From: Alphaproteobacteria bacterium
GTDB taxonomy: Bacteria; Pseudomonadota; Alphaproteobacteria; SHVV01
Length of the DNA: 64,000 bases
NCBI GenBank assembly: GCA_965261735.1
Contig: OZ253470.1
Span: forward strand, 3,616,001 to 3,680,000
Reading direction: 5' to 3'
Shown here: piece by piece, positions 735 to 59,345 of the stretch
Layout: each line of letters starts with the position of its first letter
Numbering within the stretch: position 1 is the first letter of the stretch
The notes under the pieces: generated by a model
Told to the model about the DNA's origin: nothing
Database searches by the model: none
What the model saw: the letters and a program-made list of their open reading frames with translations, nothing else
Position numbers and translations under genes: made by a program

Positions 735-1084
735 GATCGTGTCCCGCGGAGTGGTGTAAGAGCGTTGCGCTCTACGCGGCTCCCGGCGGGTAGGGCCGGG
801 ACGTTCAGGCTGCCACGGTGGGCAGCGTGATGGGGACACCATCGCTCAGCGGAGCGATGGATTCCAGCGTCATGTATCTCCTTGAGACGGCCCACTCGTC
901 GTTCTGCTCGAGAAGGATGGCGCCGACGAGCCGTGTGATGGCGGCTTCGTTGGGAAAGATACCGACGACGTTGGTGCGACGCTTGACCTCGGCATGGAGC
1001 CGATGGGGTGGACGCCCCTCCCGACGGCATCGCGATGTGCCAGGTTGGCGGTGTTGTTAACGCCAAGCGAGGAAGGGGGCGTCC

Positions 1085-2107
1085 ATGGAACAGGTTCACA
1101 TGATCGGGATCGATCTGGCGAAGAACAGCTTTCAGCTGCACGGTGCGCGGGCGGATGGGTTGGTTGCGTTCCGCAAGAAGCTGAGCCGGGCGAAGCTGTT
1201 GGACTTTGTGGCTGCGCAGCCACGCTGCACGGTGGCGATGGAGGCGTGCGGCGGCGCGCACCATTGGGGCCGGGAGATCGGCAGTCTCGGCCATGCGGTG
1301 CGACTGGTCCCACCGATCTACGTCAAAGCGTACGTCAAGCGGCAAAAGAACGACGCGTCGGATGCGGAGGCGATCTGCGAGGCGTCGTCGCGGCCGACCA
1401 TGCGCTTTGTGGCTGTGAAGACGGAGGAACAGCAGGCTCGGGGCATGCTGTTCCGGACGCGCGATCTTCTGGTGCGCCAGCGCACCCAGACGATTAATGC
1501 GCTGCGCGGCCATCTGGCGGAGTTCGGTGTCATTGCCCCACAGGGGCCGGCTCATGTCGGCCGGCTGACCTCGGCGCTTGAGGGACCGGCTTCGAGGTTG
1601 CCGGAAGCGGTCCGCGAGCTGGCCGGCCTTCTGCTTGAGCAGATCGCCGGCCTCGATGCGAAGATTGCGGGCCTGGAGAGGGAGGTCCACGTGAGAGCAC
1701 GGCAGGATGAGGAGGCGAGGCGCCTGATGAGCGTGCCGGGGATCGGGCCGATCAGCGCGATGGCAATCCAGGCCTTCGCACCGCCGATGGAGAGTTTCCG
1801 GCGCGGCCGCGACTTCTCCGCTTGGCTCGGCCTCGTGCCGCGCCAGCACACGACCGGCGGCAAGCCGAAGCTGGGCAAGATATCGAAGATGGGCCAGCGC
1901 GATCTGAGACGGCTGCTGATCACAGGCGCGATGACTGTGGTCCGCTGGGCGGTTCGGCGCGGCGTGACGACGGACCCCTGGCTGGCCGGGATGCTGGCGC
2001 GCAAGCCGAGGATGCTCGTCGCGGTGGCGCTGGCCAACAGGATGGCGCGCATCGTCTGGGTGCTACTGACGAAGAAGAAGAGCTACCGGGCTCCCGCCAC
2101 CGCCTGA
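1085..2107 (+). CDS. IS110-family DEDD recombinase/transposase
   Basis: [46 protein letters not shown] motifs; intact 340 aa. Confidence 0.95.
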
Positions 2108-2360
2108 GAGAACGGCGAAGTGCGGGAAGCCGTCGGGGATGTGGGCAGGACGGAGGACAGGTAAGGGCAAAGGTCAACGAGACCGGGTTGGGAAAACCAG
2201 CATCCGAACGGAGAGCTTTCAAGCTCGCGTAACCGATTTGGACCCAATCCGCGTATCTCCATACGGGCCCGCGGCGTGTCATCTGCCGCATAGAGAGGCC
2301 GGACACACGACAGCACCTGACCGCATGCACCGAGCCGACCAAAAACTGCTTGCATCAACG
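2108..2360 (+). ncRNA. Putative bridge RNA / seekRNA of the IS1111-type element
   Basis: Two stem-internal-loop-stem modules; loop segments match the target (CGAACGG 2205-2211; AACCG 2231-2235) and the donor (CCAT 2259-2262; ACACACG 2303-2309). Boundaries approximate. Confidence 0.7.
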
Positions 2361-3652
2361 GGGGCGTCCACACACGTTCGATCGGGTTTGTGGAGTGCAA
2401 TTTCTGGCGGTGCTCCCTGGGGAAGCTCATGTAGGCGAGGACGTCGTGCTCGGCTTCGTCCATGAGAACTGCCAGCTTGGGCACCTTGGGCCTGAGCTGG
2501 TCGGCGACCTGGCGCCACTGGACCTTCGCGCTGTCGGCGTCCTCCTGGGCGAAGGCGGAGACGACGCGCCGGCCCTGGCGGCCGGCATGGGCCAGCAGGT
2601 TGCGGGCGAAGTGCACGCGGCAGCGCTGCCATGTGGCGCCGAGGATCCGGGTCGCGGCGGCCTTCAGGCCCTTGTGGTCGTCGGAGATCACCAGCTTCAC
2701 GCCGCGCAGCCCGCGCCGGGCCAGCGAGCGCAGGAACTCGGTCCAGAAGGTCTCGGCCTCCGACGCGCCGATCGCCACGCCCAGGACCTCGCGGCGGCCT
2801 TGGTCGTTGACGGCCACAGCCACGGTCACCGCGACCGAGACGATGCGTCCGGTCTGGCGCACCTTCACGTAGGTGGCGTCGAGCCACAGATAGGGCCAGT
2901 CGCCCTCCAGCGGTCGATCGAGGAAGCCGGTGACCTTATCGTCGATCTCGCCGCACAGCCTGGAGACCTGGCTCTTGGAGGCGCCCGACATCCCCATCGC
3001 CTGAACCAGATCGTCGACCGAGCGGGTCGACACCCCCTGGATGTAGGCCTCCTGGATCACCGCAGCCAGCGCCTTCTCGGCCATCCGCCGCGGCTCCAGG
3101 AAGCCCGGGAAGTAGCTTCCCTTCCTCAGCTTCGGGATCTTCAGCTCGACCGTGCCGGCCCGCGTCTCCCAGGACCGGTCGCGGTAGCCGTTGCGATGGG
3201 TGATACGATCCGCCGAGCGCTCGCCGTGCCCGGCGCCGGTCAGGCCCTCAACCTCCAGTGCCATCAGCCGCTCGGCCGTGAAGCCGATCATCTCGCAAAG
3301 CAGATCGGCATCGGAGCTCTTCTCCAAAAGCGCGCGCAGGGTCATCATGTCCTGGGTCATCGTGGTTCTCCTTCGGGTCAGGTTGGTTTGCACTAGCCCA
3401 ACCCTAAACCGGAACCGCGATGGCCTCCGCTGTGGATAGCCGGCTTGCCTACGCCAGACTCTCGGCGGTCGCTACGGCAAGCCGCCTACCCACAGCTAAC
3501 AGAGGCTCCAACAACTCCTACACCACGTCCTGGGACACGACCTTCCTCCTTTGCTCAGCAGCCACTGCGGTACCACGCTTTGCGATCCGCGCACTCATTT
3601 TTTGTATATTATTTGGAAGCGGAAAAAGGTTTCGTAAAGCAGCGGAACTAGC

Positions 3653-7069: not shown

Positions 7070-8503
7070 GGTCGTGTCCCAGGACGTGGTGTAGGAGTTG
7101 TTGGAGCCTCTGTTAGCTGTGGGTAGGCGGCTTGCCGTAGCGACCGCCGAGAGTCTGGCGTAGGCAAGCCGGCTATCCACAGCGGAGGCCATCGCGGTTC
7201 CGGTTTAGGGTTGGGCTAGTGCAAACCAACCTGACCCGAAGGAGAACCACGATGACCCAGGACATGATGACCCTGCGCGCGCTTTTGGAGAAGAGCTCCG
7301 ATGCCGATCTGCTTTGCGAGATGATCGGCTTCACGGCCGAGCGGCTGATGGCACTGGAGGTTGAGGGCCTGACCGGCGCCGGGCACGGCGAGCGCTCGGC
7401 GGATCGTATCACCCATCGCAACGGCTACCGCGACCGGTCCTGGGAGACGCGGGCCGGCACGGTCGAGCTGAAGATCCCGAAGTTGAGGAAGGGAAGCTAC
7501 TTCCCGGGCTTCCTGGAGCCGCGGCGGATGGCCGAGAAGGCGCTGGCTGCGGTGATCCAGGAGGCCTACATCCAGGGGGTGTCGACCCGCTCGGTCGACG
7601 ATCTGGTTCAGGCGATGGGGATGTCGGGCGCCTCCAAGAGCCAGGTCTCCAGGCTGTGCGGCGAGATCGACGATAAGGTCACCGGCTTCCTCGATCGACC
7701 GCTGGAGGGCGACTGGCCCTATCTGTGGCTCGACGCCACCTACGTGAAGGTGCGCCAGATCGGACGCATCGTCTCGGTCGCGGTGACCGTGGCTGTGGCC
7801 GTCAACGACCAAGGCCGCCGCGAGGTCCTGGGCGTGGCGATCGGCGCGTCGGAGGCCGAGACCTTCTGGACCGAGTTCCTGCGCTCGCTGGCCCGGCGCG
7901 GGCTGCGCGGCGTGAAGCTGGTGATCTCCGACGACCACAAGGGCCTGAAGGCCGCCGCGACCCGGATCCTCGGCGCCACATGGCAGCGCTGCCGCGTGCA
8001 CTTCGCCCGCAACCTGCTGGCCCATGCCGGCCGCCAGGGCCGGCGCGTCGTCTCCGCCTTCGCCCAGGAGGACGCCGACAGCGCGAAGGTCCAGTGGCGC
8101 CAGGTCGCCGACCAGCTCAGGCCCAAGGTGCCCAAGCTGGCAGTTCTCATGGACGAAGCCGAGCACGACGTCCTCGCCTACATGAGCTTCCCCAGGGAGC
8201 ACCGCCAGAAATTGCACTCCACAAACCCGATCGAACGGCTCCATGCCGAGGTCAAGCGTCGCACCAACGTCGTCGGTATCTTTCCCAACGAAGCCGCCAT
8301 CACACGGCTCGTCGGCGCCATCCTTCTCGAGCAGAACGACGAGTGGGCCGTCTCAAGGAGATACATGACGCTGGAATCCATCGCTCCGCTGAGCGATGGT
8401 GTCCCCATCACGCTGCCCACCGTGGCAGCCTGAACGTCCCGGCCCTACCCGCCGGGAGCCGCGTAGAGCGCAACGCTCTTACACCACTCCGCGGGACACG
8501 ATC
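7070..8503 (+). mobile_element. IS256-family element type A, copy 2 (transposase 7252-8433)
   Basis: Both TIRs present; full ORF with [26 protein letters not shown] motifs. Confidence 0.95.
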
Positions 8504-8790
8504 CCTCAATGCCATCGTTATCGATAATTTGGCGGAGCCCCCGCGTCATCTGGTAGTCGGCCGTGCGGCTCTTCTCAACGAAGATTGTGTGCGCCATGTT
8601 GAGACGCCCGGTCCTCGCCTCATGGTCGTCGGACTTTTCATAGACAAAGATGATGAGGTGGTAACCGAGCCCATAAATCTTTTGGCGCGCCGACTTGAAT
8701 GGACAAGAGGACTGAGGTTGCCGGATGCTTGTGACCTTGATATCCAAATCGAGGCTCGGAATGTCGATGCCGCTAGCGGAGTTGCCCTCA
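8504..8790 (-). pseudogene. Type II restriction endonuclease (NspV-like), inverted middle fragment
   Basis: GNSASGID...DIKVTSIRQPQSSCPFKSARQKIYGLGY...RTADYQMTRG; continues in frame at 10239 across the shared TSD CATTGAGG. Confidence 0.75.
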
Positions 8791-8804
8791 GGCATCTCAA
8801 GCTG

Positions 8805-10238
8805 GATCGTGTCCCGCGGAGTGGTGTAAGAGCGTTGCGCTCTACGCGGCTCCCGGCGGGTAGGGCCGGGACGTTCAGGCTGCCACGGTGGGCAGCGTGA
8901 TGGGGACACCATCGCTCAGCGGAGCGATGGATTCCAGCGTCATGTATCTCCTTGAGACGGCCCACTCGTCGTTCTGCTCGAGAAGGATGGCGCCGACGAG
9001 CCGTGTGATGGCGGCTTCGTTGGGAAAGATACCGACGACGTTGGTGCGACGCTTGACCTCGGCATGGAGCCGTTCGATCGGGTTTGTGGAGTGCAATTTC
9101 TGGCGGTGCTCCCTGGGGAAGCTCATGTAGGCGAGGACGTCGTGCTCGGCTTCGTCCATGAGAACTGCCAGCTTGGGCACCTTGGGCCTGAGCTGGTCGG
9201 CGACCTGGCGCCACTGGACCTTCGCGCTGTCGGCGTCCTCCTGGGCGAAGGCGGAGACGACGCGCCGGCCCTGGCGGCCGGCATGGGCCAGCAGGTTGCG
9301 GGCGAAGTGCACGCGGCAGCGCTGCCATGTGGCGCCGAGGATCCGGGTCGCGGCGGCCTTCAGGCCCTTGTGGTCGTCGGAGATCACCAGCTTCACGCCG
9401 CGCAGCCCGCGCCGGGCCAGCGAGCGCAGGAACTCGGTCCAGAAGGTCTCGGCCTCCGACGCGCCGATCGCCACGCCCAGGACCTCGCGGCGGCCTTGGT
9501 CGTTGACGGCCACAGCCACGGTCACCGCGACCGAGACGATGCGTCCGGTCTGGCGCACCTTCACGTAGGTGGCGTCGAGCCACAGATAGGGCCAGTCGCC
9601 CTCCAGCGGTCGATCGAGGAAGCCGGTGACCTTATCGTCGATCTCGCCGCACAGCCTGGAGACCTGGCTCTTGGAGGCGCCCGACATCCCCATCGCCTGA
9701 ACCAGATCGTCGACCGAGCGGGTCGACACCCCCTGGATGTAGGCCTCCTGGATCACCGCAGCCAGCGCCTTCTCGGCCATCCGCCGCGGCTCCAGGAAGC
9801 CCGGGAAGTAGCTTCCCTTCCTCAGCTTCGGGATCTTCAGCTCGACCGTGCCGGCCCGCGTCTCCCAGGACCGGTCGCGGTAGCCGTTGCGATGGGTGAT
9901 ACGATCCGCCGAGCGCTCGCCGTGCCCGGCGCCGGTCAGGCCCTCAACCTCCAGTGCCATCAGCCGCTCGGCCGTGAAGCCGATCATCTCGCAAAGCAGA
10001 TCGGCATCGGAGCTCTTCTCCAAAAGCGCGCGCAGGGTCATCATGTCCTGGGTCATCGTGGTTCTCCTTCGGGTCAGGTTGGTTTGCACTAGCCCAACCC
10101 TAAACCGGAACCGCGATGGCCTCCGCTGTGGATAGCCGGCTTGCCTACGCCAGACTCTCGGCGGTCGCTACGGCAAGCCGCCTACCCACAGCTACCAGAG
10201 GCTCCAACAACTCCTACACCACGTCCTGGGACACGACC
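8805..10238 (-). mobile_element. IS256-family element type A, copy 3 (transposase 8875-10056)
   Basis: Near-identical to copy 2, in the opposite orientation. Confidence 0.95.
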
Positions 10239-16748: not shown

Positions 16749-17780
16749 TCAGACCGCCTGCGCGGCCTCGACGAGACGGCCGAGCTTGGCACGCGTCAGT
16801 TCGATTCCCAACATGATGAGCCCGCAGTCGGGCGCGGCCATCAGCCGGTCAGCGTCGATGCGGTCGAGCGCCGCCCGCAGGCGTGCGACGATCTCGTCGA
16901 CCGTCTCAACCCGGCTGGAGGCGATCTCGACGACGCCGAGGATGACCGTGGTGCGGGAAAACGCGTCGAGCAGGGCAAGATCGTTGTGCCGGTGCGCATC
17001 CTCGATGGAGACAGCGTCCACGATGCTGGCGTCCACCGCGCGGGCGAGCCGTCGGTAGACCTCCGGATCGGCCTTCACGTAGTCGGTCTCGTCCAGCATG
17101 TCGGGATAGCCGCAGCACATGTGCATGGTACGGGTCACGCCGCCGGGGACGCCGTGGAAGCAGCGCTCGAGATTTTCGACCCCGAAGTCGAGCGCCTGGT
17201 CCGGCAGGCGCGCGAAGAGCGGCTCGTCGACCTGGATGTGGCGGCACCCCGCCTCCGCCAGGCGTCTGATCTCCACGTTGAGCGCCCCGGCCAGATCGGC
17301 GCACCAGGAACGGTGGTTGGCATAGAAGACGTTGGCGGTCGAGTCCGCGATCGTGAGCGGTCCGGGCACGGTGATCTTGACGGGCCTGTTCGTCGCCGCC
17401 TGCGCGACCTCCCAATCGCGCACCAGGAACGGTTCGCGCGCCGCGACTTTGCCCGTGAAGGTGGGCATCTCGGCCGTCCAGGCACCGTTGCGCATGGTGC
17501 ACTCGGTTAACGTATCGAGTTCGAAGCCGTCGAGATGGCTGCAGTGGTAGCGGATGTAGTTCGCCCGCCGGATCTCGCCGTCGGTCGGGATGTCGATTCC
17601 GATAGCGGCCTGCTCGGCCACGACCTCTCGTGTCGCACGGTCGAAAGCGGCCCGCCGCTCCTCCGGCGACAAGTCCCCGGCCTCGACCTCGCCGACCTCG
17701 ACGTTCTCGTGCATCCAGGCAGTGCGCGGCACATAGCGCGGTTTGGGATAGGAGCCGATGCAGGTGGTCACGAGCGGCAT
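16749..17780 (-). CDS. Cobalamin-independent methionine synthase II family (MetE catalytic domain only)
   Basis: TTCIGSYPKP, TDGEIRR, IQVDEP, HMCCGY, APDCGL Zn-ligand motifs. Confidence 0.9.
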   Translation of the reverse strand: MPLVTTCIGSYPKPRYVPRTAWMHENVEVGEVEAGDLSPEERRAAFDRATREVVAEQAAIGIDIPTDGEIRRANYIRYHCSHLDGFELDTLTECTMRNGAWTAEMPTFTGKVAAREPFLVRDWEVAQAATNRPVKITVPGPLTIADSTANVFYANHRSWCADLAGALNVEIRRLAEAGCRHIQVDEPLFARLPDQALDFGVENLERCFHGVPGGVTRTMHMCCGYPDMLDETDYVKADPEVYRRLARAVDASIVDAVSIEDAHRHNDLALLDAFSRTTVILGVVEIASSRVETVDEIVARLRAALDRIDADRLMAAPDCGLIMLGIELTRAKLGRLVEAAQAV

Positions 17781-18094
17781 GGACGGCCCCCTGGGTTGTG
17801 GCTCGGTTCCGAATTTTGATCCCCACGGTCTACACGAATTCAATAACCGAGGGGGCCGCTCCAAGCATCAACTCTTCGCTCGCTTCATCTCAGGGTCGTA
17901 GAGCGGACCGCTTTGCAGCTTGCACGGGACGCGTTCGTCCGCCACTTCGAGCTCGAAGTCCAGCTTCGATCCCCTGATCCTGGCAGACGGCAAGACCGAC
18001 CTCTTCGTGGTCGCGCCCGAGGAGACCATCGAGCACGTCGAGGGCTGGCTGCGCCTGTGGGTCGCCATCCCCAACGCCGTCGCCGGTATCAACG

Positions 18095-18429
18095 GGAACT
18101 CGCCTTCTTCCGCAAGCACCGCCAGCGCATGCGTTACCACGCCCTGAAGGCAGAGGGCGTCGCCATCGGCTCAGGCGTGGTCGAGGCGGCCAACAAGACC
18201 CTGGTGACCCAGCGCATGAAGCGCTCCGGCATGCGCTGGCGGATCGCCGGCGGACAGGCTGTGCTGACCTTCCGCGCCCTGATCAAATCCGCTCGCTTCG
18301 ACCGGGCATGGAAGGCCATCATCGGCGCAACCGACACACCAGCCAACGACAACATCAATCCCTGTGCCGTCATCGCCATCGCTGCCTGAACTCAATGAAC
18401 GAAGCCACTGCTATCAACTGGGATTCCCC
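18095..18429 (+). mobile_element. ISKra4-family remnant (3' end), diverged from the copies at 30135 and 49460
   Basis: RMRY...IGSGVVEAANKTLVTQRMKRSGMRW. Confidence 0.75.
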
Positions 18430-18449
18430 ATGTTGGAACCGATCCACGC

Positions 18450-20002
18450 GGTCGTGTCCCAGGACGTGGTGTAGGAGTTGTTGGAGCCTCTGGTAGCTGT
18501 GGGTAGGCGGCTTGCCGTAGCGACCGCCGAGAGTCTGGCGTAGGCAAGCCGGCTATCCACAGCGGAGGCCATCGTGTGTGGACGCCCCCGTTGATGCAAG
18601 CAGTTTTTGGTCGGCTCGGTGCATGCGGTCAGGTGCTGTCGTGTGTCCGGCCTCTCTATGCGGCAGATGACACGCCGCGGGCCCGTATGGAGATACGCGG
18701 ATTGGGTCCAAATCGGTTACGCGAGCTTGAAAGCTCTCCGTTCGGATGCTGGTTTTCCCAACCCGGTCTCGTTGACCTTTGCCCTTACCTGTCCTCCGTC
18801 CTGCCCACATCCCCGACGGCTTCCCGCACTTCGCCGTTCTCTCAGGCGGTGGCGGGAGCCCGGTAGCTCTTCTTCTTCGTCAGTAGCGCCCAGACGATGC
18901 GCGCCATCCTGTTGGCCAGCGCCACCGCGACGAGCATCCTCGGCTTGCGCGCCAGCATCCCGGCCAGCCAGGGGTCCGTCGTCACGCCGCGCCGAACCGC
19001 CCAGCGGACCACAGTCATCGCGCCTGTGATCAGCAGCCGTCTCAGATCGCGCTGGCCCATCTTCGATATCTTGCCCAGCTTCGGCTTGCCGCCGGTCGTG
19101 TGCTGGCGCGGCACGAGGCCGAGCCAAGCGGAGAAGTCGCGGCCGCGCCGGAAACTCTCCATCGGCGGTGCGAAGGCCTGGATTGCCATCGCGCTGATCG
19201 GCCCGATCCCCGGCACGCTCATCAGGCGCCTCGCCTCCTCATCCTGCCGTGCTCTCACGTGGACCTCCCTCTCCAGGCCCGCAATCTTCGCATCGAGGCC
19301 GGCGATCTGCTCAAGCAGAAGGCCGGCCAGCTCGCGGACCGCTTCCGGCAACCTCGAAGCCGGTCCCTCAAGCGCCGAGGCCAGCCGGCCGACATGAGCC
19401 GGCCCCTGCGGGGCAATGACACCGAACTCCGCCAGATGGCCGCGCAGCGCATTAATCGTCTGGGTGCGCTGGCGCACCAGAAGATCGCGCGTCCGGAACA
19501 GCATGCCCCGAGCCTGCTGTTCCTCCGTCTTCACAGCCACAAAGCGCATGGTCGGCCGCGACGACGCCTCGCAGATCGCCTCCGCATCCGACGCGTCGTT
19601 CTTTTGCCGCTTGACGTACGCTTTGACGTAGATCGGTGGGACCAGTCGCACCGCATGGCCGAGACTGCCGATCTCCCGGCCCCAATGGTGCGCGCCGCCG
19701 CACGCCTCCATCGCCACCGTGCAGCGTGGCTGCGCAGCCACAAAGTCCAACAGCTTCGCCCGGCTCAGCTTCTTGCGGAACGCAACCAACCCATCCGCCC
19801 GCGCACCGTGCAGCTGAAAGCTGTTCTTCGCCAGATCGATCCCGATCATGTGAACCTGTTCCATGGACGCCCCCTTCCTCGCTTGGCGTTAACAACACCG
19901 CCAACCTGGCACATCGCGATGCCGTCGGGAGGGGCGTCCACCCCATCGGCTCCATGCCGAGGTCAAGCGTCGCACCAACGTCGTCGGTATCTTTCCCAAC
20001 GA
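18450..20002 (+). mobile_element. IS256 type A remnant (left end plus short 3' piece) enclosing IS1111 copy 2
   Basis: IS256 left end 18450-18574 joined to the IS1111 right end; IS256 3' piece 19947-20002; intervening transposase gene absent. Confidence 0.88.
18573..19948 (-). mobile_element. IS110-family (IS1111 group) element, copy 2 (recombinase 18842-19864)
   Basis: Near-identical to copy 1 (2 amino-acid differences); CG cores at 18573-18574 and 19947-19948. Confidence 0.93.
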
Positions 20003-20108
20003 GGCCCGCCCTGACAAAGCAGCGAGTGTCGCACCCCCGAGACCGAAGGGATCAGCGGATACCGCCGAACCCGGCCGCGAGGTCCTCGCGCGCGATGACG
20101 CCACCCAT

Positions 20109-20205
20109 GATCGGCGCGGTCGAGAACATCCATGGCGCGCTCCCCTATATCCGGTTTGCGCCCATTCTAGCCCTAGTGGGTGTGGGTGTAAACCGGATAG
20201 GCAAG
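20109..20205 (-). mobile_element. IS1595 type A left-end fragment
   Basis: Matches the first ~97 bp of the element at 21306. Confidence 0.85.
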
Positions 20206-20595
20206 GCTCATTCGTCTATGGTTTTCTTGCTGCCTATGACCGCGCACTCCGGAAGGCCGGGGACATCTTCGCCCGGAGGATGTCTTCTGTCTCGAACCGT
20301 CAACCTCACGACAATCCCGGATCTTGCAAGGTGCAGCCACCGCCTACGACGCCTTCGGGTCGACAATCCACACTGACTCCCTGAGGACCGTACAATCCGA
20401 GACGATCATGTCCACAACTGCGGTAATCCTCGAGAAATCATAGTCACCGCTCACCTCGGATTGGGCCAGGAACGCCCTCATGACATCGCTCTTGCCAACC
20501 AGTTCGCCATGATAGACGCCCAGTTCTTTGTGCGCGTCTTTGTGCGCGGAAATCCCGCCTGAAGCACAGCTCCTGCTTCATCACCACGAGCCCTA

Positions 20596-21305: not shown

Positions 21306-22410
21306 CTTGCCTATCCGGTTTACACCCACACCCACTAGGGCTAGAATGGGCGCAACCCGGATATAGGGGAGCGCGCCATGGATGTTCTCGACCGCGCCGA
21401 TCTCCCATTCCCGCATTCGCTACCCGAGTTCCAGCGACTTTTCCCCGATGATGCGGCCTGCGCCGCCTACCTGGAGAAAGCCCGCTGGGGAGACGGCTTT
21501 GCCTGCCCGCACTGCGGCACGGCGGGAGAGCCGTTCCACTTTGAAAACCGCCCTGGCGTCCTGCGCTGCCGCAAGTGCCGCCAGAACACCGGGCTGACGG
21601 TGGGAACAGTGATGGAGCGTAGCCACACTCCGCTGAACGTCTGGTTCTGGGCCGCTTATCTGGTCGCCAGTCAGACGCCCGGCATGTCCGCCGTGCAGTT
21701 TCAGCGGCAACTTGGTCTTTCGCGCTACGAGACGGCCTTTCAAATTCTCCACAAGCTCCGCTCGGGCATGGTGCGGCCCAACCAAGACAGGATCGGTGGA
21801 CAGCCCAAGAACCATGTTGAGGTGGACGAAACCTGGGTTGGCGGGCGAACGCGTGGGGAAGGCCGTGGTGTTCACCACAAGGTTCCCGTCTCCTGTGCCA
21901 TCGAAGTGCGTCATCGAAAGCCGGGCACCAAGCTCGACAACCGGAAAGACGGACGCTATGCCGGACGCGTTCGGCTCGCCGTCGTGCTCGACCGTAGCGC
22001 CGAGTCGCTCTGTGGGTTCGTCGAGAGCACCGTCGCGCCGCGATCGCTGATCGTTACTGACGATTGGAGCGGCTATGCTGGCCTCGGTAAGCGCGGCTAT
22101 GAGCACTTCGCTGTTGCCGAGTGTGGTGATCCAGAGGTTGCCGAGCAATACCTGCCGATCATCCATCTGGTTTTCGCCAACCTGAAGACGTGGCTGATCG
22201 GTATCCACCACGGCGTTAGCCACCAGCACCTACAAGCCTACCTCAACGAGTTCACCTTCCGCTTCAACAGGCGGTTCTACCCGTTCAACGCCTTCCGCTC
22301 ATTGCTCGGCATCGCGGGCGACACCTCTGCTCCAACCTATGCCGAGCTTTACTCGGGAGAGTGGCGGCACCCTACATGTAGCGGTCATGGACGTTAACCG
22401 GATAGGCAAG
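21306..22410 (+). mobile_element. IS1595-family element type A (transposase 21378-22397)
   Basis: TIR CTTGCCTATCCGGTT; zinc ribbon CPHC...CRKC, VEVDE, TDDW, YLNEFTFRFNRR; no TSD. Confidence 0.93.
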
Positions 22411-32257: not shown

Positions 32258-33503
32258 GATCGTGTCCCGGCGCGTGGTGTAAGAGCGTTGCGCTCTACGC
32301 GGCTCCCGGCGGGTAGGGCCGGGACGTTATGGAGCCGTTCGATCGGGTTTGTGGAGTGCAATTTCTGGCGGTGCTCCTTGGGGAAAGTCATGTAGGCGAG
32401 GACGTCGTGCTCGGCTTCGTCCATGAGAACTGCCAGCTTGGGCACCTTGGGCCTGAGCTGGTCAGCGACCTGACGCCACTGGGCCTTCGCGCTGTCGGCG
32501 TCCTCCTGGGCGAAGGCGGAGACGACGCGCCGGCCCTGGCGGCCGGCATGGGCCAGCAGGTTGCGGGCGAAGTGCACGCGGCATCTTTGCCAGGTGGCGC
32601 CGAGGATCCGGGTCGCGGCGGCCTTCAGACCCTTGTGGTCGTCGGAGATCAACAGCTTCACGCCACGCAGCCCGCGCCGGGCCAGCGAGCGCAGGAACTC
32701 GGTCCAGAAGGCCTCGGCCTCAGACGCGCCGATCGCCATGCCCAGGACCTCGCGGCGGCCCTGGTCGTTGACGGCCACAGCCACGGTCACCGCGACCGAG
32801 ACGATGCGCCCGGCCTCGCGCACCTTCACATAGGTTGCGTCGAGCCACAGATAGGGCCAGTCGCCCTCCAGCGATCGATCGAGGAAGCCGGTGACCTTAT
32901 CGTCGATCTCGCCGCACAGCCTGGAGACCTGGCTCTTGGAGACGCCCGACATGCCCATGGCCTGCACCAGGTCGTCGACCGAGCGGGTCGACACGCCCTG
33001 GATGTAGGCCTCCTGGATCACCGCAGCCAGCGCCTTCTCGGCCATCCGCCGCGGCTCCAGGAAGCCCGGGAAGTAGCTCCCCTTCCTCAGCTTCGGGATC
33101 TTCAGCTCGACCGTGCCGGCCCGCGTCTCCCAGGACCGGTTGCGGTAGCCGTTGCGGTGGGTGATACGATCCGCCGAGCGCTCGCCGTGAGCGGCGCCGG
33201 TCAGGCCCTCAACCTCCAGTGCCATCAGCCGCTCGGCCGTGAAGCCGATCATCTCGCAAAGCAGATCGGCATCGGAGCTCTTCTCCAAAAGCGCGCGCAG
33301 GGTCATCATGTCCTGGGTCATCGTGGTTCTCCTTCGGGTCAGGTTGGTTTGCACTAGCCCAACCCTAAACCGGAACCGCGATGGCCTCCGCTGTGGATAG
33401 CCGGCTTGCCTACGCCAGACTCTCGGCGGTCGCTACGGCAAGCCGCCTACCCACAGCTACCAGAGGCTCCAACAACTCCTACACCACGTCCTGGGACACG
33501 ACC
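32258..33503 (-). mobile_element. IS256 type A variant with 3' internal deletion
   Basis: Both TIRs; TSD TTAGGAAC; several substitutions relative to copies 1-3; the last ~50 codons are missing. Confidence 0.9.
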
Positions 33504-33515
33504 TTAGGAACGAGC

Positions 33516-53437: not shown

Positions 53438-56400
53438 CTTCGAAGGACGGCGTCAGCGTGGCCCCGTCACCGCCGCCCAGCGCGAAGCGGCGCGAGCCCT
53501 CCATCCCGGTGCGCAGCAGCCACACATCGGCGTCCGACGCCTCCAGCCGGCCGCCCGACCTGCCGGACGCCGAGCCCGAAGAGGTCCGGGTGAACCGGCC
53601 GTCGCCCTTGACGGCCAGCGACAGGCCGCCTTCCTCCGCCGGCGTCAGCAGCTCGCTCCGGATCCCGGCCGCGCCCATGCTCATCGTGAGGTCCGCCGTC
53701 AGCGCCTCCTGGCCCTCCGGCGTCACCGTCACCTCGCCGGACCCGTAGCCCGCCGCCGTCCAGACCGAGAGCCGGTCGGTCAGCGTCAGCCCGGCATAGG
53801 GATAGACCCCGGTCAGCGTCGCATCGATGCCGCCCGCGCCCGCCTCAGAGCGGTAGCCGCCCGTGCCGCGCGAATCGCCCACCGCCAGGCCCGCCGTCCA
53901 GCGTCCTGCCCCGGACCCCGATCCGGGGTCCGACGCCCAGTCGGCGCCGATGAGGCCCGTGGTCACCTCGCCGTCCAGCGAGAGGCCACCCTCGCGGCCG
54001 TCGAAGCCGGTTATCGCGCCCCGGCCCCAGACCGAGGCGTACCCGCCGTCCCCGGCCGACCCGCCGGTCAGCGCGAACGAGGTGCCGGTGATGAAGTCGC
54101 GGCCCGTCAGCGCCCGCGATTCGGCTTCCCGCCCGGTTGCGGACGCGCCGTTTCGGGACGCGTCTCTCCCGTCCGGCCCGGCCTGCGCCAGCCACGCGCC
54201 GAGCGCCGCCATCGCGCCGCGGTCCTCGGCTCCCGCCGCCAGCGCCGCCCGGTCCCGGTCGGCCGCGTATCGGGGTGCCGCTTCGCCGCCTGTCCCGGAC
54301 CCCGATCCGGGGGTCCACGACGGCAGCGCCTGCCCGGCGAGGCTCGCCTCGATGCCCGGCGTGCGCGGCGCCTTGAGCCGCGCCTCGACCGCATCCAGCA
54401 CATGGCCCGTCACCGTGCGCCCGAAACGCGCCAGCCACGCCGCCGGCATCGCGTCGGTGTTGTCGATCGTCCCCGTCGCCGTGGCGTCGGCGATCGCCGC
54501 CCCGTACGGCGCCGAGAGCCTCAGCGTCATGGTCTCCGCGCCCTCGTCGTGCGCGTCGTCGAGCACCCGCACCGAGACCGTCCTCGACCTCTGGCCCGGC
54601 CCGAACCGCACCGCGCCCGAGGCTGCGACATAGTCCGCGCCCGCCGTCGCCGTGCCGTCCGAGGTCGCATAGCGCACCGAGACCGTCTCCGACGGCGCCG
54701 CAGCGAGCGTTACCGTGAACCGCAGCACCGCGCCCGCCGCCTCGCGCACCCGCGCGTCCGCGACCGACACGCCCGGCCCCGGCGCCGGCGCCTCCGCCGC
54801 CGCCGCCGCCGTGCGCACCAGGCGCACCGCGACCGTCTCGCCATCCTCCCAGTCGACGTCGACACCGTCCCAGGTGAAGCTCGCGTCCGAGCCATTCGCG
54901 TCGGCGAACGGCAGCGCCATGCCGCCCACGCGCAGGGTCAGGCCCCCGGTATCCCAGATCGGTGTCTTCAGCGCGAAGTAGATGCGCCGCTCCGGCGCGT
55001 AATGCCACAGCCACTGCACCCGCAGGCCGCCGCTGCCCCCGGTGTTCGTGAACAGGTCCGCGTCGTCGCTGCCGGTCGAGCCCCCGCCGAAATCGATCAC
55101 CTCCATGTCGGCCGACCACAGCACCGTCTCCGCCGGCGCCTCCGCCGGCGCGCGGTCGTTGTCGAACACGTCGACGCCCGCGGACGCCGCGGCCACCCGG
55201 TAGCCGTCGCCGGCCGCCACCGCCGCCGTCACCCGGCCGTCCGCCTCCGCCGTCGTGTCGTCCCCGGTCGCCACCGCGAGCACGGCCTCCGCCGCGCCCG
55301 CCTCGAACCGCACCGTCGACGGCGCCGCGCCGTCGAGCACCGCGCCCGCCGCGCGCACCGACACCGCGACCTCGAGCGCCGCCGCCGTATCGCCGGTGCG
55401 CCTGAGCGTGAACCGCGCCGCCGCGCCCTCCGTCACCGGCGAAGCGGCCGCCGCGATCGAGACCTCCGGCAGCGCCACCGAGACCGCCGCCGTCGCGCCC
55501 GCGATGTCCGCGTCCGTCTCGCCGTCGCTCGCGACCCACTGGTAGGCGAACCCGGCGTCATCGCGACCGTCCGCATCGGCGATCTCCGTCACCGAGGCCT
55601 CCAGCGTCTCGCCGACCCGCGCCGTCCCCGCGATCGCCGGAAGGCCCGTCGGCGCGGCATTCGCCGCCGCCACCGCTTCGGTCGCCTCGCTGACCAGCGT
55701 CTCCTGCGTCCCGCGCCCGTCGGTGAAGGTCACGCTCACCTTGACCGTCTTGCCCGCCTCGGCCGCGGTCAACGTGTAGCTCGCCGCCGTCGCGCCGGCG
55801 ATGTCCGTATCCGCGCTGCCGTCATCGGAGACCCACTGGTAGGCGAATGTGGCACCGCTCAGGCCGTCCGCATCGGCGATCCCCGAGACCGAGGCCTCCA
55901 GTGTCTCGCCGACCCGCGCCGTTCCGGCGATCGCCGGCAGGCCCGTCGGCGCGGCGTTCGCCGCCGCCACCGCGGCCGTCGCGGCGCTGAGGAGCGTCTC
56001 TCCGGTCCCGCCGTCGTCGGTGAAGGCGACCCGCACCTTCACCGTCTTGCCCGCCTCGGCCGCGGTCAGCGTGTAGCTCGCCGCCGTCGCGCCCGCGATG
56101 TCCGCGTCCGCGCTGCCGTCATTGGAAACCCACTGGTAGGCGAACGTCGCACCGCTCAGGCCGTCCGCGTCGGCGATCCCCGTCACCGAGGCGCCCAGCG
56201 TCTCGCCGACCCGCGCCGTCCCCGCGATCGTGGGCAGCCCCGTCGGCGCCGTGTTCGACACCGCCGCCTGCGCCACCGGCTCCACCGTGCCGGTCGCCGC
56301 GCTCACCAGCGTTTCTTCCGTCCCGCCGTCGTCGGTGAACGCGACCCACACCTTCACCGTCTTGCCCGTCTCGTCCGTGCTCAGCGTGTAGCTCGCCGCC

Positions 56401-59345
56401 GTCGCGCCCGCGATGTCCGCGTCCGCATCGCCGTCATTGGAAACCCACTGGTAGGCGAACACGGCGTTCCCGAGACCGTCCGCGTCGGCGATCTCCGTCA
56501 CCGAGGCCTCCAGCGTCTCGCCGACCCGCGCCGTCCCCGTGACCGCCGGCAGGCCCGTCGGCGCCGTGTTCGACACCGCCGTCCCGGCGCGAGCTACCGT
56601 CGCCACCGCCTGGCCGGGAAGCTTGCGCCCGTCCGCCGTGCAGATCGCCCCGGGCTCACCGCACGCCCCGTCGCCCGGCGACAGCGTCACCGTCACGGCC
56701 TCGTCCGACGACGGCGCCACCGTGATCTCCCACTCCGCGCTGCTCCCGTTCACCCGGTTGGCCTTGCGCACCGCGCCGTTGTCGGCCTGCACCGCCGTGT
56801 CGCGCAGCGTCCGGTAGCTCGAATTCACCGCCTCGCTGAAGCTCAGGCGCAGCACGAACGTCGTCCCCGCGCCCTCGTGCCCGGCCGCGAACGCCGCCGT
56901 CAGCGCCGCCGTCTCGCGCTCATCGGGCGCGGGCGCTGCCGCCCTCACGCTCCGGTAGTTCGACACCCCGCTCAGCTCGCGCCCCCGGATCGCCTTCACC
57001 CGGTAGACGTAGCGCACCCCTTCCTCGACATCGGTGTCCGTCCAGGCGGTATCGGCGCTCCCGGTGTCCTCGGCCACCGGCACAAGCGTGCGCTCGCCTT
57101 CCTCCGGCGCGCGGCGAAGCACCCGGTAGCCCGTCACCTCGTCGGCCGCCGCTTGCGGCGCCTGCCAGGCCAGCGCGTTGCCCGCCACCGTCGCCTCCGC
57201 GCTCAGGCCGCGCGGCCGGCGGCCCGCCGACAGGTCCTCCGTCCAGTCGTCCTTGGATTGTGTCGTTGGAGGGGTCAGGGAGTTCCACGGCAGACCCCCG
57301 CCGCCGGACTTGGTCGTGCGGACCAGGCACTCCGGCGCCGGTCCCTTCCACATCTTCTGCAGGCCGGCGCTGTCGTAGTACCGGTATGGGCCAGAGCCGC
57401 AGGGAAATTCGTCCACTATCTCCTGGAGCCTCGTCACCAGCGGCGTTGTCTCCGCCAGTTCCTGAGCGCTGACTTGTCCATCCGCCAGGATGTTCCGGCT
57501 CCTCGCCTGATATTCACAAGACGCTTCCAGGAGTTGTATCGCGGGAGGCTTGTTCCGGTCCCAATGGGACCTGCCGCAATCCGGGATGCCGGGCTCCGGG
57601 TCGGGGTCGGTGGCGGGGACGGAAACCGTCAGGGTGTAGGTGCCGAGGCCACCGTTACCACTAACCTGAACATACACGGCCCCCGTAACTTCGGCCGTCC
57701 AGATAAGGCGGGCGTTATAGCCGGTGCCCCCGTCATCATCATTTACAGCTGGCGAACCGACCGTAAATCCTTTCGTGACAAACGGATCGCTAAGCGTGCC
57801 CCTGCCTGTCGGCGACCCCTCCACATCAATCTGGTACGTAACGCCCGAGGTGAAGGAGAGACCGAAATAATCGACATCGTTAGCGGCTTGAATATTGCCG
57901 GTTACTGAGCTCCCCAGCGAAACGGTGCAGGTCGTGGTCGAATCGCCGGCGCAGTCGTCCGCCACGGGCGTGGCCGTCGCCTCGTTGGAGGCGTTGGCGT
58001 CGCCCTCGCTGTTCACCGCCCGCACCTGGAAGGTGTAGGCCGTGGCGTTCGTCAGGCCGGTGACGGTGTGGCTCAACGTCCGGGGGCTGTCGGAGATGTC
58101 CATCCAGGATCCGTAGGATCCGCTGGTCTTCTGGCGGTACTCTAACTTGGTGATGGTCGAGCCGCCGTCGTCGAACGCCGTCCACGACAGCGTTACCTGC
58201 GTGTTCCCCGGCGTCGCCGACAGGTCGGCTATGGCGTCGGGGACGGTGGCCGTGGCGCCTTGGTCGATGACGCTCACCGTGCCCGAACCGTCCGTCCCGA
58301 CCGTGTAGTCCGTGTTCGTCTGGATCGTCGCGGTGACCACGGAGTCGCTTTCCACCACGCCGTCGTCCACCGTCGGGACCGACAGCGTCGCGGTTGTGTC
58401 GCCCATGGCGAAGCTCACCGTCTTCGCCCCCTCCTCGGCGGACGCCACCATGTCTTCCGACTCCGAGACCGACACGCTGACGTTGAGCGGCCTCGACGAC
58501 AACAGCACCGGCTTCGACGCCGTCAGGATGAACTCCGCGTTGAAGCCCTCGTTCACGCCGCTGTCGCCGGCGATCGTCACCGTGGCGGGGCCGGTGGTGC
58601 CCGTGACCGCAGTGGACCACGGGCCCTTGCCGTTCCCGTTCACCGCGCGCACGTAGAGGTCGCGCTCGCCGTCGGCAAAGGGCCCTAACCCCGGCAACGT
58701 CGGGACGGGCACGAATGGACCGGCAGTGACGTCAAAGAGACCGATGTTAGCGACCGCCGTGTCCGGACTGGCCCCCGGCCCACGGATCGCTGCCTGATAC
58801 CCCGTGATCGGCGAGCCGCCGTTGTCCGCGGGCGCGGTCCAGTCCAGCTCCACCGCATGATGGCCCTCGGTGACGACGAGGCCGGTCGGGGCCCCGGGGA
58901 CGGTGGGGAGGAGCAGCCTGACCGTTATGGTATTGGTCTGCCAATCGTCTTCGTCATAGGTGTGACGGCTCTCGGCCCAATAGATTCCCACGTTGGTGCT
59001 GCTTACGACTGCGTTGGTCGCGTCACTTGCCTGCAGCGTCGTCGTGCTTCCGCCCACGGTGATTTCCAGGGTCACCCCGGTGTCCGTGAGCAAGTACAGC
59101 CGGTTATCAGAGCCTCCCCTAACCCCAAGCAGTTCAACGGTGTGGGTGGTCGTTTCGACGGTGAACGAGCCGGGACTCAGCGAACCGTGGGTCGTCGTGA
59201 GGTAGGCAGCGGCGGACGAGCCATAGCCGTCGTAAGTGTAGGCACCGACCGTCCAGCTATTGGCCGACGTCAAGGTGGCGTTCCACGCCACGGTTTGCGC
59301 GTGGGACGGTGCGCTCGGGAGAAGGAACATCAGCGCCGCAAGCAA
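53438..59345 (-). pseudogene. Giant surface adhesin / autotransporter-like protein (FN3, PPC-like, Calx-beta-like, tandem Ig-like repeats), barrel truncated by IS1595
   Basis: Signal ending SHA-Q; FN3 motifs (LDWTAP.DNGGSPITGY, YTFQVRAVN); VRYATSDGTATAGADY; AWLARFGRTV linker, then beta-strand-rich C-terminus cut at TPSFE. Confidence 0.8.
55490..56575 (-). repeat. About 3.5 tandem ~300-bp coding repeats
   Basis: N.APTGLP...GTARVGETL.ASV..IADADG...FAYQWV..DG..DADIAGATAASYTL; the last copy is truncated. Confidence 0.9.

Follow-up and report, generated by a model that had tools for sequence, protein, structure and literature searches.

Insertion sequences (ISs) of the IS1111 group are marked by a GL-P----S(T)G motif, a long downstream non-coding region, and subterminal inverted repeats of 7 to 17 bp, and promoters formed at junctions are known in the family (PMC11187229). 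In IS1111-type seekRNAs, the top-strand match lies 5' of the bottom-strand match (PMC11187229), and Durrant et al. (PMC11208160) predicted that IS1111 bridge RNAs contain donor loops. For IS621, the donor arms alone suffice for excision, and a right-donor motif of 5 bp can be enough to initiate half-match recombination (bioRxiv 10.64898/2026.08.31.748434). Natural partial circles often retain one canonical boundary (bioRxiv 10.64898/2026.08.14.744561), and when the ends of ISPpu9 are mutated, recombination occurs in the flanking DNA at core dinucleotides that were not expected to be used (PMC12288879). Here, we describe a copy of an IS1111-type element (copy 2) in a 64,000-nucleotide (nt) stretch of DNA from an uncultured alphaproteobacterium (the window; positions 3,616,001 to 3,680,000 of a single-contig 5.03-Mb genome, contig OZ253470.1). 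One end of copy 2 is fused to the far part of the IS256 element in which it sits, and we consider it reasonably probable, judging from the sequence, that this joint was produced by excision-type recombination between the right junction of the element and a pseudo-left junction in the IS256 DNA (at site 2, see below).

Copy 1 of the element (1003 to 2374, plus strand) has both IS256 flanks intact, within a composite spanning approximately 735 to 3543, and served as the reference for the undeleted state. Copy 2 (18575 to 19946, minus strand) has its left end, ATGGGGTGGACG, at 19946 and its right end, ..GTCCACACA, at 18575; its reverse complement shows 3 mismatches to copy 1 in 1,372 nt, and its recombinase gene (18842 to 19864, minus strand) is intact, with 338 of the 340 encoded residues the same as in copy 1. 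The left junction is alike in both copies (GCATGGAGC-CG|ATGGGG) and lies at what is here called site 1 of IS256. The IS256 fragment at this normal junction of copy 2 (19947 to 20006, plus strand; core CG at 19947-19948) comprises IS256 positions 1167 to 1226 and is cut at approximately 20006 by an unrelated break. The right junctions differ, with ..GTCCACACA-CG-TTCGATCGG in copy 1 versus ..GTCCACACA-CG-ATGGCCTCC in copy 2. The CG core of this novel joint, right end-CG-ATGGCC, lies at 18573 to 18574 (minus strand) and equals IS256 positions 124-125. Beyond the deletion remains a 125-nt left-end fragment of IS256 (18450 to 18574, plus strand), which consists of IS256 positions 1 to 125 (3418 to 3542 in copy 1) including the GGTCGTGTCCC terminal repeat and is 99 to 100% identical to other copies. 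The original prediction had placed the left end of copy 2 at the same IS256 site as that of copy 1 and its right end, fused at the CG core, at a second IS256 site near 3418, with about 1.04 kb including the transposase missing, and all of this was confirmed. What is missing from the copy 2 locus is IS256 positions 126 to 1166, i.e., 1,041 bp (or, with one copy of the core included, 1,043 bp of the composite), and with them the start and 339 of the 404 codons of the transposase gene.

In the undeleted composite, the second site (site 2; 3411 to 3425, plus strand) reads GGAAC-CG-CG-ATGGCC, with the core that was used at 3418-3419; intact IS256 reads CCGGAACCG-CG-ATGGCC. The stretch CG-ATGG resembles the left end of the element, as had been pointed out, and the left-target-like GGAAC-CG in front of it, which the original prediction had passed over, is 2 nt out of register with the joint. 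A second pseudo-left junction exists in IS256, at 3184 to 3200 (GGTAGC-CG-TTG-CG-ATGGGT); its left-target-like part matches at 4 of 5 positions, and it is unused in the genome.

Word counts over the genome gave 58 occurrences of empty site 1, 3 of the left junction at site 1, and 2 of the right junction at site 1; the third copy at site 1 of IS256 lies 13 kb upstream of the window. The 21-mer across the copy 2 joint occurred once, and unjoined site 2 occurred 59 times. A 12-mer of the donor joint was found only at copy 2, and the circle junction was absent from the assembly. Other left-end fragments of IS256 (positions 1-121, 1-140, and 1-150) have their endpoints elsewhere, and none of them adjoins the IS1111-type element. 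In Logan contigs of four runs over 17700 to 20400, which consist of short unitigs, no listed piece bridges 18574/18575, and loose ends at 18574 continue as intact IS256. Among JGI metagenome contigs, an exact-match search returned no hit for the copy 2 joint and likewise none for the control, the normal right junction of copy 1.

The element measures 1,372 bp (shared CG core excluded), and whole-genome BLAST found 14 full-length copies of at least 99.4% identity plus 2 partial ones. Its 340-amino-acid recombinase matches DEDD_Tnp_IS110 (PF01548, 5.7e-15) and Transposase_20 (PF02371, 3.9e-22), scores 319 bits against NF033542 ("IS110 family RNA-guided transposase"; cut-off, 140), and carries the GL-P----S(T)G motif in its C-terminal domain. 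A non-coding region of 267 nt follows the recombinase stop codon (2108 to 2374 in copy 1), and subterminal inverted repeats of 11 bp pair GTGGACGCCCC (1008 to 1018) with GGGGCGTCCAC (2361 to 2371), also in copy 1. The 14 copies share the flanks ..AAC-CG and CG-(G)TTCG, which indicates site-specific insertion with no target duplication. By its domains, motif, non-coding region, repeats, and insertion without duplication, the element is assigned to the IS1111 group of the IS110 family. Eighteen sites vary among the 14 copies, and copy 2 is identical at all 18 to the copy at genome position 1547538. These single-nucleotide polymorphisms (SNPs) do not group the three IS256-borne copies, and a chimeric copy would not be detectable from them.

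The guides of the element were located by covariation, first in the non-coding regions of four variants that differ in their flanks and then in those of 66 loci (the window copy and related elements), which yielded 39 distinct guide sets, with one locus (L061) left out as misaligned. A right-target guide, CCGAACGG (2204 to 2211 in copy 1; 18738 to 18745, minus strand, in copy 2), lies in an internal loop and is complementary to the top strand of C-CG-TTCGG, that is, to the core and right target. The left-target guide, GUAACCG followed by AU (2229 to 2237 in copy 1; 18712 to 18720, minus strand, in copy 2), reads in the sense of the left target GTAAC-CG and then runs on into AT, the dinucleotide with which the left end begins; this AU extension we would call handshake-like. 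For the donor side, CUCCAU (2257 to 2262 in copy 1; 18687 to 18692, minus strand, in copy 2) can pair with the left end ATGG(A/G)G and represents the right-donor guide, and GGACACACGA (2301 to 2310 in copy 1; 18639 to 18648, minus strand, in copy 2), the left-donor guide, corresponds in sense to the right end ACACA-CG-A. Across the 39 guide sets, the left-target guide fits the flank of its own element at 6.54 of 7 positions on average versus 3.56 of 7 for the flanks of other elements, the right-target guide at 6.08 versus 3.72 of 7, and the left-donor guide its own end at 6.95 versus 5.50 of 7, with a full match in 37 of 39. Covariation is weakest for the right-donor guide, where the pairing with ATGG is present in every variant and position 5 frequently shows a wobble or mismatch. 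A consensus fold computed from 34 of 43 distinct sequences contains 23 pairs, 8 of them with compensatory changes; in it, the two target guides flank an internal loop that a hairpin closes, and the two donor guides flank a second stem. The order in the RNA, CCGAACGG (2204 to 2211) 5' of GUAACCG (2229 to 2235), is that of the IS1111-type seekRNAs cited above. A search of Rfam with the non-coding region gave no family at E values up to 1 beyond two chance-level matches. Judged by covariation and fold, the region is predicted to encode a seekRNA/bridge-type guide with both target and donor guides.

Two further observations concern the guides and cores of related elements (L numbers denote loci of the comparison set). 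The core is CG at the left but CA at the right junction in L048, L049, L104, and L108 and in the partial copy at genome position 3363441; in L048 and L049, the right-target guide also has CA, and the left-target and left-donor guides have CG, which suggests that the core mismatch may be tolerated or programmed. Several IS1111-type variants are inserted in the non-coding regions of other variants, in or beside the guide RNA gene or a subterminal repeat (L019/L037, L063, L105, L076, L095, L097, L109, and L108). By these positions, related IS1111-type elements are seen to target each other's guide genes.

All 14 copies match the left-target guide at 3 to 5 of 5 positions in addition to the core, and the right flanks match at 2 to 5 of 5; a right-target match of only 2 of 5 was found in 7 of the 14 copies, copy 2 among them. 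Right flanks that depart from the consensus occur at the copies at genome positions 4466650, 1544443, 1699256, and 3689049. The copy at 4466650 (right flank CG-ATGTGA) interrupts a gene for an S9 peptidase, the two halves of which correspond to residues 1 to 133 and 134 to 704 of an uninterrupted 716-amino-acid homologue (95% identical), with 2 extra nt. Since the halves are contiguous, this copy represents a simple insertion, in which the CG is shared rather than duplicated. At the copy at 1544443 (right flank CG-ATAAGC), the downstream part starts at residue 224 of a homologue and the upstream part is a weak match (E, 0.09) in contiguous register, so that this copy, too, is probably a simple insertion. 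An orthologue of the S9 peptidase was not found in the four related genomes searched, and counts of spanning open reading frames are unreliable at the G+C content here. Recurrent deletions to CG-AT sites, which had been entertained as a candidate pattern, were rejected on the basis of the two insertions at 4466650 and 1544443. Sites of the form left target-CG-AT are instead real insertion sites, as the 9-nt match to GUAACCGAU predicts. Because the left-target guide runs 2 nt (AU) past the core and simple insertions occur at CG-AT, CG-AT by itself is no mark of a deletion.

In the reading that we favor for copy 2, the element would first have inserted at its usual site 1 in the IS256 transposase gene, GGAGC-CG-TTCGA, as did copy 1 and the third copy. 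Its recombinase would then have paired the right junction (right end-CG-right target) not with the true left junction but with a cryptic look-alike that lies in the same IS256, 1,043 bp downstream. This look-alike, GGAAC-CG-CG-ATGGCC, offers the core CG and ATGG, the part of the right donor that is always paired, with GGAAC-CG directly upstream. Exchange at the second CG would leave right end-CG-ATGGCC in the chromosome, and the intervening IS256 DNA would be lost, presumably as a 1,043-bp circle carrying GGAACCG-CG-TTCGATC. We infer that the recombinase and its RNA made the joint and that the event took place in cis, and likewise which guide recognized the site.

Several features of the joint point in this direction. 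The deletion begins exactly at the right boundary of the element, at a CG, which is the crossover dinucleotide. Of the half-sites expected in an excision-type synapse, the left donor is present in full, the right target at site 1 matches at 4 of 5 positions, and the pseudo-right donor beginning with ATGG matches at 4 of 6; the fourth, the left target, matches at 0 of 5 in register and at 4 of 5 with a 2-nt offset. The copy at genome position 374884 uses this offset sequence, GGAAC-CG, as its functional left target, and site 2 resembles a left junction with the CG doubled. The 1,168 nt of IS256 downstream of the right end contain 137 CGs, only 2 of which are followed by ATGG; a random CG endpoint would thus show ATGG about 1.5% of the time. 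Both ATGG and a directly adjacent left-target-like element are found only at the CG that was used. Site 2 is a poor insertion target in the joint register (left target, 0 of 5; right target, 2 of 5). Binding of each junction by the excision complex spans both loops of the RNA (PMC13626964), and a site that combines left-target-like and right-donor-like halves would therefore be attractive to it. The joint itself, ACACA-CG-ATGGcc, combines the left donor in full with 4 of 6 positions of the right donor, a composition from which recombinase origin cannot be shown by sequence alone.

A number of points weigh against this reading. A closer and better mimic, CG-ATGGGT with its core at 3194, was left unused. 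The right-donor match amounts to just 4 of 6 positions, with ATGGCC mismatched at positions 5 and 6, and the left-target-like element is 2 nt off register, its role being a post hoc suggestion. Right flanks of the form CG-AT occur at simple insertions also, and the AT after the core can thus be explained without the donor guide. The event is a single one, known from the assembly, and the reciprocal circle is not observable. Recent work on the IS110 group favors single-strand copy-out, in which the donor locus is left intact; a fixed deletion would then require that the exchange be completed on the other strand too or that the exchanged strand be replicated. As the right end of this IS256 was lost at approximately 20006, an event in cis and one in trans with another of the ∼60 IS256 copies are indistinguishable. 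Deletion by the element's own recombinase through a mimic of the left junction, as originally proposed, nevertheless stands as the best-supported reading, given that ATGG is the constant portion of the right-donor pairing and that site 2 is a poor target with none of its 59 unjoined copies occupied.

The original prediction had offered an alternative, in which two copies in the same orientation occupied sites 1 and 2 of one IS256 and homologous recombination deleted one of them together with the 1 kb between. The product would be identical, and the genome provides 14 near-identical copies whose mosaic SNP pattern suggests exchange among them; moreover, the element tolerates poor right targets, including that of copy 2 itself (2 of 5, as in half of the 14 copies). 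What this alternative requires is an insertion at site 2, where the left target, AACCG, matches the guide GUAAC at 0 of 5 positions, whereas all 13 other full-length copies show at least 3 of 5 plus the core. The close fit of left-target guides to their own flanks across the 39 guide sets (6.54 of 7) speaks against so poor a target as well. An insertion guided by the adjacent GGAAC-CG would yield right end-CG-CGATGG, which is not what is observed. We also checked the genome for the element at the second site with both flanks, as had been suggested, and found it at 0 of the 59 unjoined site 2 copies; nor was an occupied site 2 present among 80 related loci that were fetched. With a left target of 0 of 5 in the joint register and no filled site 2, two insertions followed by homologous recombination are unlikely.

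The element could also have inserted in a simple manner into an IS256 derivative that already carried an internal deletion, with the junction GGAGC-CG-ATGGCC. Such a junction would be a plausible target, as GGAGC-CG-AT matches the left-target guide plus AU at 7 of 9 positions and sites of the type left target-CG-AT are genuine insertion sites; internally deleted IS256 copies do exist, for example, at 32258 to 33504. This explanation needs an unrelated deletion that ended exactly at the site 1 core, however, and no empty derivative is present in the genome, where the only BLAST pieces starting at IS256 position 1167 are three, all beside this element. We regard it as quite unlikely.

Illegitimate recombination or slippage, independent of the element and ending at its boundary by chance, would be in keeping with surroundings full of broken ISs (an ISKra4 fragment at 17913 to 18389, the end of an IS1595-type element at 20109 to 20215, and the IS256 piece cut at 20006). 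The microhomology available is just the 2-nt CG, though, and one endpoint is exactly the element end while the other falls at a CG-ATGG, found at 2 of 137 CGs, which makes a chance event very unlikely. Most improbable is an assembly artefact: the genome appears to be metagenome assembled (its closest relatives are records of metagenome-assembled genomes [MAGs] of uncultured Alphaproteobacteria) and very rich in repeats (14 full element copies and 58 empty IS256 site 1 words), and the joint is known from the assembly, but a single 5.03-Mb contig running through dozens of 1.4-kb repeats would imply long reads, the two sides of the joint share only 2 nt, from which an overlap assembler would not invent such a join, and unique DNA lies 125 nt away on one side and ∼1.5 kb away on the other, so that ordinary long reads would span the joint.

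The joint also recreates, at the sequence level, a promoter of the circle-junction type. The look-alike TTGCAT-N17-CACGAT (18571 to 18599, minus strand; TTGCAT at 18599-18594 and CACGAT at 18576-18571) reads toward lower coordinates, and its second hexamer is restored by the CG-AT at the joint. TTGCAT is conserved in the four variants. By our own count, the two hexamers match the sigma-70 consensus at 6 of 12 positions, and a promoter scan did not list them. The putative outward promoter points, across a fragment of an ISKra4 transposase gene on the opposite strand, at a cobalamin-independent methionine-synthase-like gene in the same direction (16749 to 17864, minus strand; PF01717, 3.7e-44; its scores against the methionine synthase models do not reach their curated cut-offs). 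Of the original claim that a promoter facing this metE-like gene had been recreated, the sequence and its direction were thus borne out, and the promoter itself stays putative.

The IS256 element that hosts the copies is 1,435 bp long when intact, and ∼60 IS256 copies are present in the genome. Two intact ones, inverted relative to each other and 299 nt apart, lie at 7070 to 8504 and 8804 to 10238. The transposase gene of the former (7219 to 8433; 404 codons) encodes a Mutator-type DDE enzyme (PF00872, 1.3e-116; NF033543, 327.7 bits versus a cut-off of 150), and the terminal inverted repeats begin with GGTCGTGTCCC.. and GATCGTGTCCC... The left end of IS256 holds a palindrome resembling repetitive extragenic palindromic (REP) sequences, of which approximately 12 scattered copies of 82 to 83% identity occur in the genome (71-nt matches to IS256 positions 46 to 116); another IS1111 variant in a related MAG sits in the loop of such a REP-like palindrome (loci L056 and L057). 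The older IS256 copy at 32258 to 33504 (∼97% identical) has a 188-nt internal deletion with its junction near 32328/32329. On its right side, this deletion ends directly in front of ATGGAGC-CG, with the site 1 core following 7 nt downstream, and ATGGAG is fully complementary to the CUCCAU guide; there is no IS1111-type sequence at this copy, and a link is unproven.

The genome between 3.60 and 3.69 Mb, including the whole window (1 to 64000), is dense in ISs, with 5 IS1111-type copies within ∼90 kb, an IS1595-type element represented by at least 5 copies or fragments (e.g., 21306 to 22410), and fragments of ISKra4. Elsewhere in the window, at 55367 to 56575, there are 4 tandem direct repeats of ∼297 to 315 nt each, 66 to 87% identical to the reference copy (family D7).

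On the best reading, copy 2 is a natural scar of a type of event known from experiments with the IS110 group, in this case with an IS1111-type element, a partner outside the element, and a heritable deletion. Bridge RNA and seekRNA recombinases are under development as programmable genome editors, and their excision and off-target activities are debated in papers and preprints of 2025 and 2026. If true, our reading would provide field evidence that a 4-nt right-donor motif plus the core recruits the reaction in flanking DNA and would extend such recruitment to an IS1111-type element, beyond IS621. The event inactivated a competing IS, the IS256 element, whose transposase gene was for the most part lost. 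The guide map, with 39 guide sets and their targets and ends, represents a testable code for the clade, and the composite at 735 to 3543 is a ready substrate for reconstitution. More tentatively, and with considerable doubt, one may speculate that IS1111-type recombinases can run excision on a pseudo-left junction in flanking DNA (GGAAC-CG plus CG-ATGG, the core doubled), leading to the heritable loss of neighboring genes. The permanent donor joint would recreate an outward promoter and might donate to further RNA-guided rearrangements, and the elements could then act as agents of genome reduction that kill competing ISs in IS-laden symbiont genomes.

Deletions adjacent to ISs with DDE transposases, such as IS1, IS26, and IS903, likewise start exactly at one end and retain the element. 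They arise by intramolecular transposition into a nearby target, whereas the element here encodes a DEDD recombinase, which acts at a core specified by RNA. In a limited search of the literature, covering main texts, we found no account of a naturally occurring deletion of this kind in flanking DNA. In its architecture, the element resembles the IS1111-group seekRNA elements ISEc11, ISPa11, and ISKpn4 (Siddiquee et al. 2024, PMC11187229), with a recombinase of ∼340 amino acids, the GL-P----(S/T)G motif, a long downstream non-coding region, subterminal inverted repeats, site-specific insertion without duplication, and the top-strand match 5' of the bottom-strand match. It differs from them in its target, GTAAC-CG-TTCGG, which includes a site in the IS256 transposase gene, in its host, an uncultured alphaproteobacterium, and in that its donor-side guides were deduced from covariation. 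With the modular circles of ISPpu9, the locus shares the recombination of alternative boundaries at a conserved dinucleotide and the use of cryptic sites in flanking DNA (PMC12288879); ISPpu9, however, belongs to the IS110 group and its circles were obtained in the laboratory, whereas copy 2 represents a natural genome scar. If the favored reading holds, a close parallel in the reaction is with the half-match recombination and partial circles of IS621, in which the crossover also takes place at the core dinucleotide, a left-donor arm is combined with a short right-donor-like motif, the target halves are dispensable, and one true terminus is reused. In contrast to those cases, the outcome here, as read from sequence alone, is a fixed chromosomal deletion and not a circle or an off-target insertion, the element is of the IS1111 type and carries its guide RNA 3' of the recombinase gene, and the cryptic partner is located in flanking DNA rather than within the element.

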